From Emiliania huxleyi CCMP1516 (taxonomy: Eukaryota): a stretch of DNA of 64,000 bases. How positions within the stretch are numbered: the stretch's first letter is position 1; every line of letters begins with the position of its first letter. Below the pieces are notes generated by a model, which searched no databases, was not told where the DNA came from, and saw only the letters and a program-made list of their open reading frames with translations. The translations under genes were made by a program, and so were the position numbers. Shown in pieces: positions 26,401 through 32,431 of this stretch. Location: positions 561,440 to 625,439 of the forward strand of contig NW_005201792.1 in assembly GCF_000372725.1 (NCBI RefSeq), written 5' to 3'.

Positions 26401-26649
26401 GAACTGGTGTGAGACGTGCAGCGCGAGACCATGTCTGCGCTACTTCCACGCACCACGTTCAGAGCTCGTCCCTTCCCCGACTTGAGCGGCGAGCCCTCGC
26501 TGTCTTTTCCCATCTTGATTTGCGCTCCCTTGCCGTCTCTCAGCTCTCCCCCGGTCTCGACGGCGGTCCTCTTCCCAGCTGAGAGCGCACGTTATTTTCT
26601 TCCGGGTTTCGGAGAACGTCCTGGAAACATTCGCAAGTCGCCGACTTCC

Positions 26650-27603
26650 ATGGATTCGTTCGGCCTTGTTCTCCTCCTCACGTCGGCCAGCGGTCTCACC
26701 GTCAAGCCCGCCCTCCTCCCACCACCGCGGTCAATCGCCACGCCTTCTGTGGCCACCAAAACTGCACCATTTGAAGCGGCTTATGGACTCCATAAGCCGC
26801 GCATCAACGAACCGCGGATGGCTGGCACCGACTCTGACACCGCCTCGCGTGCTGGCGCCGCACTGCAGATGGCGATTTATGACGACGCTCGCCAGCGCTC
26901 AGCCAGAGCGCCACGCCGCTGGCCGGCCGCGAGCAAGTGGGTGCTGGCGTCGGCCGCCGCCGCCGCCCTGGTCCAATGCGATTTGGGCGGGCTGCTCGCG
27001 GCGTACAACTCGGCGCTACATGATTGGCCATTCTCCACCAAGGCTCTGAGCACTGGCATCACCTACGTCCTCAGCGACTTGACGGCGCAGGCTCTCGAGC
27101 GGCGGGCTGTCGCCAGCAGCAGCGGTGGCAGCCGGCAAGGCATCACCCTGTCGGCGGCGGGCAGCGAGAGCAAGCTCAGGGTCGGGCGTGCGCTGCGCTT
27201 TGGAGCGGTCGGCCTCCTCTGGGTGGGCCCGCTGCTCGCCGGATGGTTCCAGCTCATGGAGCACTTTGTGCCCGGCCGCTCTGCCGGCGCCGTCACCCGC
27301 AAGCTGATCCTCGACCAACTCGTGCAAGGACCCTTCATGATCGGCACCATGTACCTACTGACCGGCGTCTCGGGCGGGCTGGCGACCGGCCGGGGCTTTG
27401 GTCGATCCCTGCGGCAGGCTCGTCGCACGGCCGAGCAGCAGCTGGCGCCAACGTGGGTGCGGTCCGTCTTTGTGTGGGCGCCGGTGCAGGCGCTGCAGCA
27501 GTTGTTCGTCCCGCTGCAGCACCGCGTGCTCGTCGCGAATGGGGTGAGCTACTTCTGGGACACGTACCTCGCGAACAAAATGGGCGGTGAGGACGAGAGC
27601 TGA
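26650..27603 (+). CDS. Mpv17/PMP22 family membrane protein with bipartite presequence
   Basis: YNSALHDWPFSTKALSTGITYVLSDLTAQ, RALRFGAVG, KLILDQLVQGP and WAPVQALQQLFVPLQHRVLVANGVSYFWDTYL. Confidence 0.9.
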   Translation: MDSFGLVLLLTSASGLTVKPALLPPPRSIATPSVATKTAPFEAAYGLHKPRINEPRMAGTDSDTASRAGAALQMAIYDDARQRSARAPRRWPAASKWVLASAAAAALVQCDLGGLLAAYNSALHDWPFSTKALSTGITYVLSDLTAQALERRAVASSSGGSRQGITLSAAGSESKLRVGRALRFGAVGLLWVGPLLAGWFQLMEHFVPGRSAGAVTRKLILDQLVQGPFMIGTMYLLTGVSGGLATGRGFGRSLRQARRTAEQQLAPTWVRSVFVWAPVQALQQLFVPLQHRVLVANGVSYFWDTYLANKMGGEDES

Positions 27604-28057: not shown

Positions 28058-28140
28058 CACAACGTCTCATCAACAGGTTGGCGCAGACCTCGCTCTGAGA
28101 GCTGTGCCTGCTTTCGCCGAAACCGCTTCATTCGCTTGTG
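28058..28140 (-). promoter_or_regulatory. SECIS element (form II) in the 3' UTR of the GST-MsrA gene
   Basis: Minus strand: cacaagcg-a-ATGAA-gcggtttcggc-g-AAA-gcaggc-aca-gctc-tca-gagc-gag-gtctgc-gccaacctgt-TGAT-gaga-cgttgtg. Helix I, the UGAN/NGAN quartet, an ~11-bp imperfect helix II, unpaired AAA and an apical mini-stem all fold by hand. Confidence 0.75.
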
Positions 28141-28236: not shown

Positions 28237-29820
28237 CTAGAGCCCCCAAGCCGTCCCTGGACCGCCCAGATCGCCCCAGCCGTCGTCATCGGCCGCGGCA
28301 CTCCACGAGGGGAACGACTTGTCCTCCGCCAGAAAGTGCTGGTGGTACTCCTCCGCATCGTGCCTAGGGACACGCGTCGGGACGCGTGATCGACGACTCG
28401 AGACGAGCGGTAGCTGCACGCTCCTCGCGCCACGCGCTCGGGGGCAAGACAGGAACCAGCCCTTCCTTGCCCGCCTCCGCGAGCGCCGTCCGCGCTGCCG
28501 CCGCCTGCGCGCCGGTGTGTGCCCAGACGGCGACCCGCGTCTGCCGCCGCCGGAGGAGGTGGAGCGCGGAGTCGGCGGGGAGGGCGCGCACGCGCTGCAC
28601 GCGTGGGTCGGATGCGAAGCGGCGAACCAGCTCGCCGTAGGAGACGACCTGCCCACACAAGCAGGCGTGAGTTGACCTGCACCGCGGCGCGGAGGCCTGC
28701 GCCGCCGCTCGAGGCCGACGGGTCGAAGTCGAGACGGAGCGCCTAGTGCCCGTGGCAACGCCCGCGACTCAGCCGCCGGCCCAGACTCGCGCGGAGGCGG
28801 AGGGGCGAGCGGCCTCGGTGTGCGTGTTCGCGCGGGCGCAGACGCTCTCGTACGACGGTGGCGCCCCGGACGGGTCCCCGTCGCCGTCGCCGCCCGTGTA
28901 GCCGACGCGGGAGCGCAGGACGCCTGGTGGACGAGAGAAGGGGCGCGAGCGTCACGGGCTGGCGCACGGCGGGCAGGTCAGCGAGGCGCCTCACCCGGGA
29001 TCGAGTCGTACTCGGACTGCGGCAGGTGGAATCAGCCGAGGCCAAAGGTGGCCGTCTCTGTGCGGGTATGCTCCTCCCCGCGTGCGCCAGGAGAGACGTG
29101 CGACACATAGTAAAGCCTCGCAGCGCGCGCCATCTCCGCCTCGCCGGCGCTCGTCGCCTGCACTGAGGGTCGCGCGGCGACCGCCTCCATCCACGAGGCC
29201 GTCCTCGCAAGCCCCTGCTGACGGCAGAGCTTGAGCAGGTCAATGTTGCGCCAGTACGGTAGCATGAGCAGCATCCGCTCGACCCACGGAGCGGCGACGC
29301 ACTCGGCCAGCGAGAACGCCCCTCCGAGCAGGAAGGGCGCCGCGCCAGTGGACGCCTCGCGTCAGCCTCCTCGCGCCATCGTGCGCTCCCACAGAGATGC
29401 CTCCACCGCACGTAGCGTCTCCAGGAGGCCGGCGACGGCAGTGCGGACCTGCGCCTCGGACTCGGCCTTGAGCACCGTGTAATAAGCCGGCTCGACCTGG
29501 CTTGTCCACACACCCACGAAGGCGTCGATGGCAGCCGTCTCGGCGCTCGGAAGCAAGTTTGTGTGCCGAGTGCGGAACTCTGTCGCCACGCGCCTCGCGA
29601 CGACCGCTGACTCCGTCACCACCTCCCCGTCATCCATCACGAGGAGAGGCACGAGGCCGGTTGGCGACAGCCTCAGGAACTCCGGCGGTTTCTTCTCGAG
29701 GTCGATCAGCGTGTGCTCAAAGCGTGTTTTTGTCTCGAGCAGCGCAACCCAAGGGCGCTGCGCAAAGGGTCACACACCCGAGTTGAAGAGGCGAAGCCCG
29801 AATGGTGCGAGGGCGAGCAT
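28237..29820 (-). CDS. Selenoprotein: Cys-type (omega/DHAR/lambda-like) glutathione transferase fused to methionine sulfoxide reductase A
   Basis: GST part: LFNSGV-[TGA 29770-72]-PFAQRPWVAL...KPPEFLRLSPTGLVPLL..GEVVTESAVV...PFLLGGAFSLAE..APWVER. MsrA part: ATFGLG-[TGA 29032-34]-FH..SIP/GVLRSRVGYTGG..PSYESVC..HTE/ALRLDFDPS/VVSYGELV..W/HDAEEYHQ. A further in-frame TGA lies at 29362-64. Confidence 0.85.
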
Positions 29821-30354
29821 GACTCCGCCGAGCTGAAAGCCCAACTGGGCGTCCCTCGCGGCTGCTCCAAAAAACAAAACCGGGAGGGTTGGGAGCGAGG
29901 GGGCGAAAGCCCAGCCCTCTCCGCGCGGCGATGCGCCCTCCCCCCTCGCTTTTGCAAAATCCTGCAAAGGTGGGGACGTGTCTGTCCTCGACCTAGCCCT
30001 AGCTTGGGATGTCCGTTGTATTTATTTATTTATCGAGGGGGCGAAAGTGTTCAGTGCGGTAGATGGTAAGCTCGAGGCGCGTGAGCCGGACCTGTGAGCC
30101 GGACCACCCCCTCTTGTTCCCTGCGTTGTTGAGCCAGGACTCAACATACTCGGGCTTGCTCATCCCAAACTGTCACTCCCCTTTCTCCCGGCCGGGGTGG
30201 GGCGCGCGCGGGGGCGGCGGGTGTGCGGCGGGTGTGCGGGATGTCTGTGGGCCCGAGAGCGATTGCCGTGTCCGCCTTGCGTTTGTTTCAAACATCGAAG
30301 GCTAAGCTCAAAAAGAAATAAAAAAAGGCAAATATTATATATGTCGCGCTCCGC

Positions 30355-32431
30355 ATGCCGCCGCTTGTTGACAGCGCGCTGGGCGGCGAAGTCTCAGAGA
30401 ACGTCCTCTAGGCGGCTGCGGACGGCCGCGTGGGACCGGTGCGATTGTGGCTGAATGACGGCGGGAAGGCGGACACGCTCTTCCACGCTGAGTCTCAGTG
30501 CGGCCAGACTCCATGCACCCTGCTGATGCTCTCCGCGCAGGCCGGGCACGTGCAGATGGTCGAGCTCCTCCTGAAGCGTGGCGCACACATCAACCTGCAA
30601 ACCAGTTGCGGGTCCACTGCGCTCAACACTGCCGCCGCCTGCTACGGCAACGAGCGAATGGTGGAGATGCTGCTGCTGCACGGAGCGGAGATAAACCCGC
30701 AGGACTCCGCCGTTTGGTCGGCGCTGGCAGTGGCTGCCCAGGGTGGACAAGAGCGGGTTGTCGACCTGCTGCTGCGGCGTGGCGCAGAGATCGACATGCA
30801 AGACAAGAACGGTGGCACCGCGCTGATGCTCGCCGCCTTCGGCCATCCCGCCGTCGTTCTCCGCCTGCTGCGGGCGGGCGCAGACATGACGTTGCGCGAT
30901 GCGGAGGGCAAGACGGCGCTGCAGTGGGCCAAGGAGGAGGGCCACGCCGAGTGCGTCGAGGCCTTCAGGACGCATCTCGGGGAGGTGGCAGCGGTCCGGA
31001 AAAAAGGCGCCGTCAGCCGAAGCAGGCGGCGCAGGTGAGGCGGTGGGTGCGAGTGCCGCGGCCTCTGCTTCGAGCGGCGAGGGAGGCGCGGAGGTCGAGC
31101 CGAGCGGCGGCGGGGCGGTGCCAGAGGAGGTTGAGCTGGCGGCTCGGCGAGGCGATGAGGAGGCGGTGCTGGCGTGGCTCGACGGCGGCGGGCGGGTCAA
31201 CGCGACGTTCGAGTACGTCTTTTCGGAAGGGCCTGTGAGCGGCATGACGCTACTGATGCTCGCAATGACCTACGGCCACGCGGGGCTGGCTGAGGCGCTT
31301 CTGCGGCGCGGTGCAGATGTCTCGTTGCAGAACAGCAGAGGTGGCGCCGCGCTGGGTCTCGCCGCCGCGAACGGCCGCAAGAAGCTGGTCGAGCTGGCAT
31401 TGCAGCACGGCGCGGAGGTGAATCAGCAAAACAATTCCTGCATCACTGCGTTGATGGACGCCGCCTACAAAGGCCACGAGCGGATTGTCGACTCGCTGAT
31501 CCGGCACGGCGCGGCGATCGACCTGCAGGCCAACAACAGCGACACCGCACTGATTCGGGCCGCTTTCAACGGCCACCCCGCCGCCCTCCTCCGCTTGCTG
31601 CGGGCGGGTGCAGACATGACGCTGTGCACTACGGATGGCACGACCGCGCTGCAATGGGCCAAGAAGCAGGGCCACACTGAGTGCGTGCGCGCCCTCGCGG
31701 AGCATGCGGCGGCCGAGAAGGCGGCCGAGAAGGCGGCGGCGGAGGCGGCGTGGGCCGCGGGAGCGGCGGAGAGGGCGGCGCAGAGGGCAGCGGAGGAGAA
31801 GGAGGCGGCGCGGCACGCCGAGGAGCTGCTGGCGGAGGTCGAGGCGGAGAAGCGCGCCAAGGGCAAGAAAGGCAAGAAGAAGAAGAAGAAGGGCGGCAGG
31901 CCGGGCGGGGCGGGGCCGTCGCAGGAGCCCGAGGAGGGTGCCGAGGGGCCGTCGCAGGCAGACGCAGCGGAGGCGGCGAAGAAGGCCGAGGAGGCGAGGC
32001 TTCTCCTGCTTCTCGAGACGCTCACCGAGGAGAGGATGCGGCTTGGCATCACGCCGGAGAGCCAGGCGGCGGCGGCGGCCGAGGTGGCCGAGGTGGCACG
32101 CTTGGACGCGGAGGCGGACGAGGCGGAGGAGGAGGCGGAGGCGGAGCAGGAGGCCGAGGCGGCGGCCGAGGCGGCGGAGGCGGATGCCGAGGCGGCGCAG
32201 GCGGAGGCCAGGGCGGCGAGGGACGAGGTCGTGGCGGCGCTGGAGAAGGCCAGGGTAGCGCTGGAGGAGGCCAAGGCGAAGCTGAGCGGGGCCGAGTCGG
32301 CTGTTGAGGGGGGCGAGACGGCGCTCGAGGAGGCGAGGGCCGCCACAAAGATGAGGCGTGCTGCTGCAGCCGCTGCGATGGCCAGGGCAGCCGCCGCCAG
32401 GATGGCAGCGGAGGCGGCCCAGCGCTCATAG
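30355..32431 (+). pseudogene. Ankyrin-repeat protein with Ala/Glu-rich coiled-coil tail, disrupted
   Basis: Two tandem ankyrin modules (TALMLAAFGHPAVVLRLLRAGAD..TALQWAKEEGH; TALIRAAFNGH..TALQWAKKQGH). In-frame TAG at 30409-30411 and a frame change near the A-run at ~31000. Confidence 0.7.

Follow-up and report, generated by a model that had tools for sequence, protein, structure and literature searches.

Results

The DNA analyzed here is a 64,000-nucleotide stretch of Emiliania huxleyi CCMP1516 (contig NW_005201792.1, positions 561,440 to 625,439), referred to below as the window. Its minus strand carries, at 29820-28237, a GST-MsrA fusion gene of five exons and 435 codons. The reading frame that opens at ATG 29820 is free of TAA and TAG as far as the GT donor at 28994, and the gene ends at TAG 28239-28237, giving a product of 435 residues. 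Three in-frame TGA codons (codons 17, 153, and 263) lie in exon 1. An initial annotation of this DNA had described the start codon, the donor, a TGA at 29772-29770 within UPFAQR, and another at 29034-29032 within GUFH, all of which are present exactly as claimed. It was also correct that TGA codons are the only breaks in the frame, but it counted two of them and overlooked codon 153.

Coding exon 1 (28995-29820) was assigned from Pfam matches and contigs and encodes the GST domain (approximately residues 9 to 250), a linker, and the first MsrA strand with the GUFH motif. Eight residues (29820-29797) lie ahead of the GST domain. Intron 1 (28924-28994; GT-AG, 71 nt) leads to coding exon 2 (28814-28923), with RVGYTGG, YESVC (Cys304 is encoded by 28840-28838), and HTE. 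Intron 2 (28743-28813; GC-AG, 71 nt) precedes coding exon 3 (28716-28742), whose 27 nt encode ALRLDFDPS, a conserved MsrA core strand. Intron 3 (28649-28715; GC-AG, 67 nt) is followed by coding exon 4 (28431-28648), with RRRQTRVAVW and a Thr at the position of MsrA Tyr134, and intron 4 (28364-28430; GC-AG, 67 nt) by coding exon 5 (28237-28363), with AEEYHQHF, a conserved GPGTAWGL tail, and the TAG. All of these features are on the minus strand. One GT-AG and three GC-AG introns bring the MsrA motifs RVGYTGG, PSYESVC, HTE/ALRLDFDPS/VVSY, and AEEYHQ into frame; the initial annotation had attributed these motifs to downstream exons, and the joints that connect them are seen in contigs from public sequencing runs.

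Fourteen public runs, from six studies, contain at least half of the words of the stretch, and eight of these were compared in detail. The run data are assembled contigs rather than reads, and X14 alone is recorded as RNA; the joints coincide with the splice sites. In contig alignments, joints 1 and 4 were present in all eight runs and both middle joints in five. Taken singly, the GC joint of intron 2 was found in six runs and an alternative joint in three (X1 has both), and the joint of intron 3 was found in five, with one X1 contig retaining this intron. A further suggestion of the initial annotation was to look for both domains on one transcript. Single contigs of X5, X7, and X13 run from the GST part into the 3′ untranslated region (UTR) with five exons, and one X8 contig also covers both domains with four exons. 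One contig alone is no proof of a single mRNA; intron-free orthologues do have both domains in one frame. Among database entries, the proteins P0215 and P0347 correspond to the MsrA part as spliced, including exon 5, and P0347 scored 62.4 bits against a cut-off of 23.7 in a profile search with PMSR. The G+C content of the window (~65%) and the GC-AG type of three of the four introns agree with E. huxleyi as described in the available text of PMC4028052, where GC donors and leaky splicing are reported for this species.

At its end the X13 contig lacks ATG 29820; it also shows four further changes in exon 1 and has lost 1 nt at 28333. Upstream of the gene, the region at 29836-30230 is a repeat common to many other contigs and varies among L001, L002, X10, and X13. 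On the opposite (plus) strand, an Mpv17/PMP22 open reading frame (26431-27603) converges on the 3′ end of the fusion gene and ankyrin-repeat sequence (30358-32431) lies upstream of it; neither neighbor shows any sign of a link to the fusion gene.

The alternative middle joint connects a GT donor at 28768, inside intron 2, to 28648 and preserves the frame. It occurs in three of the eight runs (X1, X6, and X8, from two studies), and in X6 and X8, which belong to the same study, it is the only middle joint listed. The resulting four-exon form loses the nine residues ALRLDFDPS of exon 3 and gains an in-frame TGA at 28771-28769, a fourth TGA. Residues A, R, L, D, and P of exon 3 are found in 28 to 30 of 31 aligned rows, and the profile score falls from 265.5 bits for the five-exon form to 233.2 bits for the four-exon form. 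Skipping of the 27-nt exon is thus likely to spoil the MsrA fold, as judged from conservation. Since GC donors and leaky splicing are described for E. huxleyi (PMC4028052, as far as its text was available), mis-splicing is as likely an explanation of the four-exon form as regulation.

Relatives of the gene were sought in a metagenome scan, which returned 175 relatives; 80 loci were kept, 12 of them at 51% identity or more. Two (L001 and L002) are from the same species as the window (98% identity) and retain the three TGA codons. Three other lineages (L003/L004, L005/L007, and L006) carry intron-free full fusions in which both GST and PMSR exceed the Pfam cut-offs. The fusion is therefore present in four lineages, at 61 to 69% identity and with a short linker. 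The remaining loci of this group (L008, L009/L010, L011, and L012) encode stand-alone GSTs that terminate in TAG. Among these, L008:122-889, L009:35-817, and L011:66-860 have TGA at both codon 17 and codon 153, together with a SECIS-like hairpin, and form a predicted two-Sec GST subfamily whose members gene callers have split. Four pattern matches were found in viral contigs, with no relative among them. The cluster of the L003 N-terminal piece includes a Chrysochromulina parva protein that ends at codon 153. In the L003 fusion (L003:2956-4278), codon 17 encodes Cys and TGA stands at codons 153 and 263, i.e., the catalytic GST Sec is swapped and the loop Sec is retained; database entry P0337 reads both of these TGA codons as Trp. 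Hydrophobic leaders of 10 to 17 residues, signal-peptide-like by eye, precede the GST domain in L003, L007, L008, and L011, and the location of the protein may vary by lineage.

We then compared the TGA codons across eight distinct coding sequences that are 50 to 88% identical pairwise. This alignment omits L013 to L080 (68 of the 80 loci, with 26 to 33% identity over the domain and up to 49% on short pieces) and the duplicates L001, L002, L004, L005, and L010. TGA is confined to three alignment columns, corresponding to codons 17, 153, and 263. Codon 17 (29770-29772), a predicted Sec at the position of the catalytic Cys of omega/lambda/DHAR-type GSTs, is TGA in seven of the eight sequences and TGC in L003, and it aligns to the catalytic Cys of 6srb and 5evo. 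Codon 153 (29362-29364) is predicted to give the GST domain a second Sec, located in a loop after helix 5 with the pattern [GS]-U-[QRH]-E. It is TGA in 7/8 sequences down to 54% identity, is absent in L012, and is never TAA or TAG; its surroundings are variable, and the TGA and a Glu two codons later are invariant. Codon 263 (29032-29034) lies in GUFH, the counterpart of GCFW, and is predicted to encode the catalytic Sec of MsrA. All four fusions have TGA here, and the L006 orthologue aligns it with the catalytic Cys of Escherichia coli MsrA. Cys takes the place of Sec at each site in some relative: TGC at codon 17 in L003, Cys-Cys in the codon 153 loop of P0002 and P0009, and Cys at the codon 263 position in canonical MsrA. 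The interchange that the initial annotation had proposed to look for at codons 17 and 263 is thus found at both. In the contigs, codons 153 and 263 have neither a variant letter nor a joint in any of the eight runs, and the same is true of codon 17 in the seven runs that cover it. A small intron around codon 153 was considered and ruled out, as eight runs have no joint there. The projected ends of 9 among 177 database proteins fall at positions 150 to 159, and 8 of these (at least 42% identity) at 151 to 153; DNA was seen for the L003 cluster alone.

We considered whether one or more of these codons might be true stops, with codon 153 truncating the protein or the locus being a transcribed pseudogene. 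In favor of true stops, Sec153 falls at no known catalytic position, the window's case for a SECIS is of moderate strength (see below), and one contig (X13) has the 1-nt deletion at 28333. Against true stops, codon 153 is TGA in nearly every sequence and never another stop codon, Cys stands there in two relatives, and constraint after codon 153 equals that before it (62 to 75% identity, pN of 0.19 to 0.32 versus pS of 0.49 to 0.73). In the segments flanking each TGA, pN was below pS in 17 of 17 comparisons; together with the restriction of TGA to three columns, this speaks against a chance origin of the codons. In the structural model described below, a stop at codon 153 would halve the GST fold. 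We regard true stops as very improbable. Because TGA is conserved at three sites, Cys occurs there in relatives, and a SECIS-like hairpin follows the gene, it is very likely, judging from these sequence patterns, that a three-Sec protein is made. E. huxleyi is reported to produce 75Se-labeled proteins (PMC6254913, in the part available). The selenoprotein GST-MsrA fusion put forward by the initial annotation is supported by splicing, Sec/Cys interchange at both sites that it named, three other fusion lineages, and the hairpin.

The SECIS-like hairpin (28066-28131, minus strand) was found by pattern scan and folding and has an AUGA core, a helix, AAA, a long apical stem, and GA. It lies 105 nt past the stop, within the contigs. 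Nine places in the window, counting both strands, matched in a strict scan, this hairpin being one of them. When the 261-nt UTR was shuffled 20,000 times, 457 shuffles had any match and 16 had an equally strong one, with a threshold set post hoc; the folding z-score of the hairpin was -1.5. The strict scan detected the window hairpin and those of 3/7 relatives, whereas a relaxed, unconstrained scan found all seven relatives' UTR hairpins and did not find that of the window. An Rfam scan gave five weak matches, none of them SECIS, and did not find the window hairpin. The relatives' UTRs have hairpins with AUGA and GA cores at like places. In five of these hairpins, helix II is 92.5% paired and two of eight pairs are altered on both sides, in a structure drawn from the same sequences. 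Across 72,880 bases, a model built from these five (R1) had 61 weak matches, of which none coincided with the longer hairpin of the window, and it placed the L006 hairpin third; R1 does not discriminate. On its motifs and position, the hairpin at 28131-28066 is likely a SECIS element. The SECIS-like hairpins of three stand-alone GST loci (L009:874-924, L011:946-1006, and L012:945-993) have AUGA and GA cores and an apical loop without the usual AA.

Profile searches, which the initial annotation had recommended, identified both domains. When its TGA codons were translated as Sec, exon 1 matched GST_N_2 (E = 1.3e-16) and GST_C_2 (E = 1.4e-6), and PMSR matched the P0347 protein described above; in the full fusions both domains exceeded the Pfam cut-offs, with PMSR at 62 to 70 bits. 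The AlphaFold2 model of the L006 orthologue, which is 61 to 72% identical to the window protein by segment, had a pLDDT of 90.8 and a pTM of 0.73. In this model Sec17 opens helix 1, Sec153 lies in the loop past helix 5 (block pLDDT of 72), and Sec263 lies past the first MsrA strand. Foldseek matched the first domain to omega GSTs and DHARs (TMt of ~0.8) and the second to MsrA (E = 9e-13).

The first domain shares its fold with Cys-type GSTs, namely, omega GSTs (Trametes GSTO3C, 6srb, and human GSTO1) and DHARs (5evo and 5d9t), and like them it has the catalytic residue at the opening of helix 1, a CPF-type motif, and conserved VP and ES motifs. UPFAQR aligns to CPYVQR of 6srb and CPFSQR of 5evo, in keeping with the CP[FY] motif of Cys-type GSTs at helix 1. 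It differs from omega GSTs and DHARs, which score similarly at 20 to 24% identity to either, in that Sec replaces Cys, a further Sec or Cys follows helix 5, and MsrA is fused to it. A Sec-containing GST-like family of algae, listed in the available text of PMC7539508, likewise has TGA at the catalytic Cys position. That family is described with one Sec, and the clade of the window gene adds a second at codon 153, in both stand-alone and fused proteins. A tree of 46 rows placed every row that has Sec, Cys-Cys, or an end at position 153 in one 29-row clade (support 100/99), alongside rows without these features. This clade pattern, together with the stand-alone relatives that carry Sec153, indicates that Sec153 is likely older than the fusion and did not evolve to serve MsrA. 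One side of a branch is made up of the four fusions, with support of 71/88 (not starred), at which level the tree does not prove that the fusion had a single origin. Two distant GST relatives, P0071 and P0077, have Trp at site 17, which is likely a TGA miscalled as Trp; Sec17 may therefore extend outside the clade.

To our knowledge, a second Sec in the C-terminal domain of a GST has no known role. In proteins with the GST fold, the loop that follows helix 5 is remote from the glutathione site, so that residues 17 and 153 of one chain could bond directly only through movement or with the help of another subunit. As an exposed residue, Sec153 likely has an auxiliary redox role in the GST domain, and it may act as a relay in the fusion. 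Cys174 and Cys199 were considered as partners of Sec153 and rejected, as neither follows Sec153 strictly among relatives.

In the MsrA domain, Phe52 and Trp53 form the methyl pocket and Glu94, Tyr82, and Tyr134 bind oxygen in MsrA, according to the available portions of PMC8417374; these residue roles were also taken from what was available of bioRxiv 10.1101/2021.02.26.433065. Equivalents of Phe52, Tyr82, Glu94, and His186 are retained, and those of Trp53, Tyr134, and Tyr189 are replaced by His, Thr, and Phe, respectively. All four fusions have GUFH, with His for Trp53, and so depart from the G-C/U-F-W motif. In alignment A3, Thr replaces Tyr134 in 22 of 32 rows, and Tyr occurs at the 189 position in four canonical rows only. 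TIGR00401 scored 54.7 to 65.6 bits in three full fusions, under its cut-off of 108.1. A GPGTAWGL-type C-terminal tail (28260-28240) after an acidic stretch is conserved in most close MsrA relatives and is not present in the canonical rows; it is unordered in both models, with a pLDDT of <50.

The ordinary methionine-S-sulfoxide (Met-S-O) chemistry assumed by the initial annotation is made less certain by the replacement of Trp53, Tyr134, and Tyr189. The MsrA domain might instead act, driven by glutathione (GSH) via the GST domain, on another oxidized sulfur or selenium compound, such as dimethyl sulfoxide (DMSO), rather than on protein Met-S-O. The three replacements with the distributions given above and the tail that canonical rows lack are in line with such a change, and yeast MsrA is reported to reduce DMSO to dimethyl sulfide (DMS) (PMC6211008, in the text available). 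The fold is that of a plain MsrA, on the other hand, and the equivalents of Tyr82, Glu94, Phe52, and His186 are kept. The Trp of the tail might also substitute for the lost Trp53, though this is speculation about a segment with a pLDDT of <50. Haptophytes are strong producers of DMSP and DMS. On balance we consider a changed substrate unlikely.

Beyond residue 304 the window protein has no Cys, which fits the 1-Cys type of MsrA. The absence of a C-terminal resolving Cys noted in the initial annotation therefore holds for everything after residue 304, and the conserved Cys304 remains inside the MsrA domain. Cys304 occupies the position of E. coli Cys86, is conserved in 31 of 32 rows, and, going by the alignment, could serve as an internal resolving residue. 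One of the closest known systems is the 1-Cys Sec-MsrA of Clostridium (Alkaliphilus) oremlandii, which, in the available text of PMC4479559, has its catalytic Sec at the same position and no C-terminal resolving Cys. Its structure (4lwj) has the same fold as the second domain of the window protein (TMq of 0.62). C. oremlandii MsrA keeps Trp18 and Tyr140, where the window protein has His and Phe, and it uses a separate glutaredoxin as reductant (PMC4479559), whereas the window protein has a fused GST-fold domain.

Discussion

A GST-MSRA selenoprotein fusion of E. huxleyi was predicted by Jiang et al. (2020, BMC Genomics 21:699; PMC7539508), in whose available text it has four exons and support from expressed sequence tags and is left uncharacterized, with no mechanism. 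The fusion is thus already known as a prediction, and its novelty, which the initial annotation had left for checking, is not supported. The window gene is probably the same gene: the two share the domain pair, the order of names, Sec in both domains, and a single spliced gene. The intact form in the window has five exons (in five of eight runs), and a four-exon form was seen in three. The main text of PMC7539508, so far as available, gives no Sec count, second GST Sec, other species, or mechanism, and no two-Sec GST appears in its section on proteins with several Sec residues; its figure, supplement, or database may record them. If the gene is the same, their model must cross codon 153, and so their database may show Sec153. 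A literature search, mostly outside subscription journals, returned no other work dealing with the fusion or with recycling of MsrA by a GST, and no experimental test of the fusion. The three further fusion lineages and the strand-dropping four-exon form go beyond the main text of Jiang et al. as available to us. The present analysis further adds, as predictions from the sequences, a third Sec, stand-alone GSTs with two Sec residues, a wider distribution, and a changed MsrA pocket.

We propose that the two domains are coupled in an enzyme for sulfoxide repair that draws on glutathione to regenerate itself, a reading by analogy that we hold to be an even proposition. Sec263 would attack the sulfoxide, aided by the retained equivalents of Tyr82, Glu94, and His186, and would be left as a selenenic acid. 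With no C-terminal resolving Cys, glutathione would trap Sec263 as Se-SG. The attached GST domain would then play the part of a glutaredoxin, using Sec17 to strip off the glutathione, with a second GSH releasing GSSG. Recycling of an MsrA selenol by GSH and a GST is plausible by precedent: according to the available text of PMC4479559, glutaredoxin and GSH, and not thioredoxin, regenerate the Sec-MsrA of C. oremlandii, an enzyme with no resolving Cys. The accessible part of PMC6815410 contains no precedent for recycling of MsrA by a GST.

Alternatively, the three-Sec protein may be made and its domains may work independently, with the GST acting on dehydroascorbate or small glutathione adducts, the MsrA being served by free glutaredoxin or thioredoxin and perhaps by Cys304, and the fusion merely coregulating two antioxidant enzymes. 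Stand-alone GSTs with both Sec17 and Sec153 (L008, L009, and L011) imply that this domain has a job without MsrA, and the conservation of Cys304 and the presence of DHARs among the closest solved GST folds point in the same direction; in the text available to us, Jiang et al. argue for co-induction only (PMC7539508). Independence accords less well with the retention of the fusion, with its short linker, in four lineages at 61 to 69% identity, with the missing C-terminal resolving Cys, or with the glutaredoxin precedent for a Sec-MsrA (PMC4479559, available portion). We judge independent domains to be possible but somewhat improbable. A more elaborate version of coupling would be a three-Sec relay in which electrons pass from GSH to Sec17, then to a previously undescribed Sec153 on a mobile GST loop, and then to Sec263, where a pocket remodeled by His for Trp53, Thr for Tyr134, and the conserved Trp tail reduces a sulfoxide other than Met-S-O, such as DMSO, and skipping of the 27-nt exon turns off the MsrA half. 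We think this combination quite unlikely.

If coupling is correct, a GST that acts as an internal reductant for MsrA would constitute a new recycling route. The exact five-exon model, the three Sec positions, and the intron-free orthologues make this testable now. Nature also supplies variants in the form of the Chrysochromulina-like orthologue with Cys17, Sec153, and Sec263, the two-Sec stand-alone GSTs, and the Cys-Cys forms. Because gene callers split the coding sequence into three pieces, the fusion protein is hidden in ocean metagenomes.
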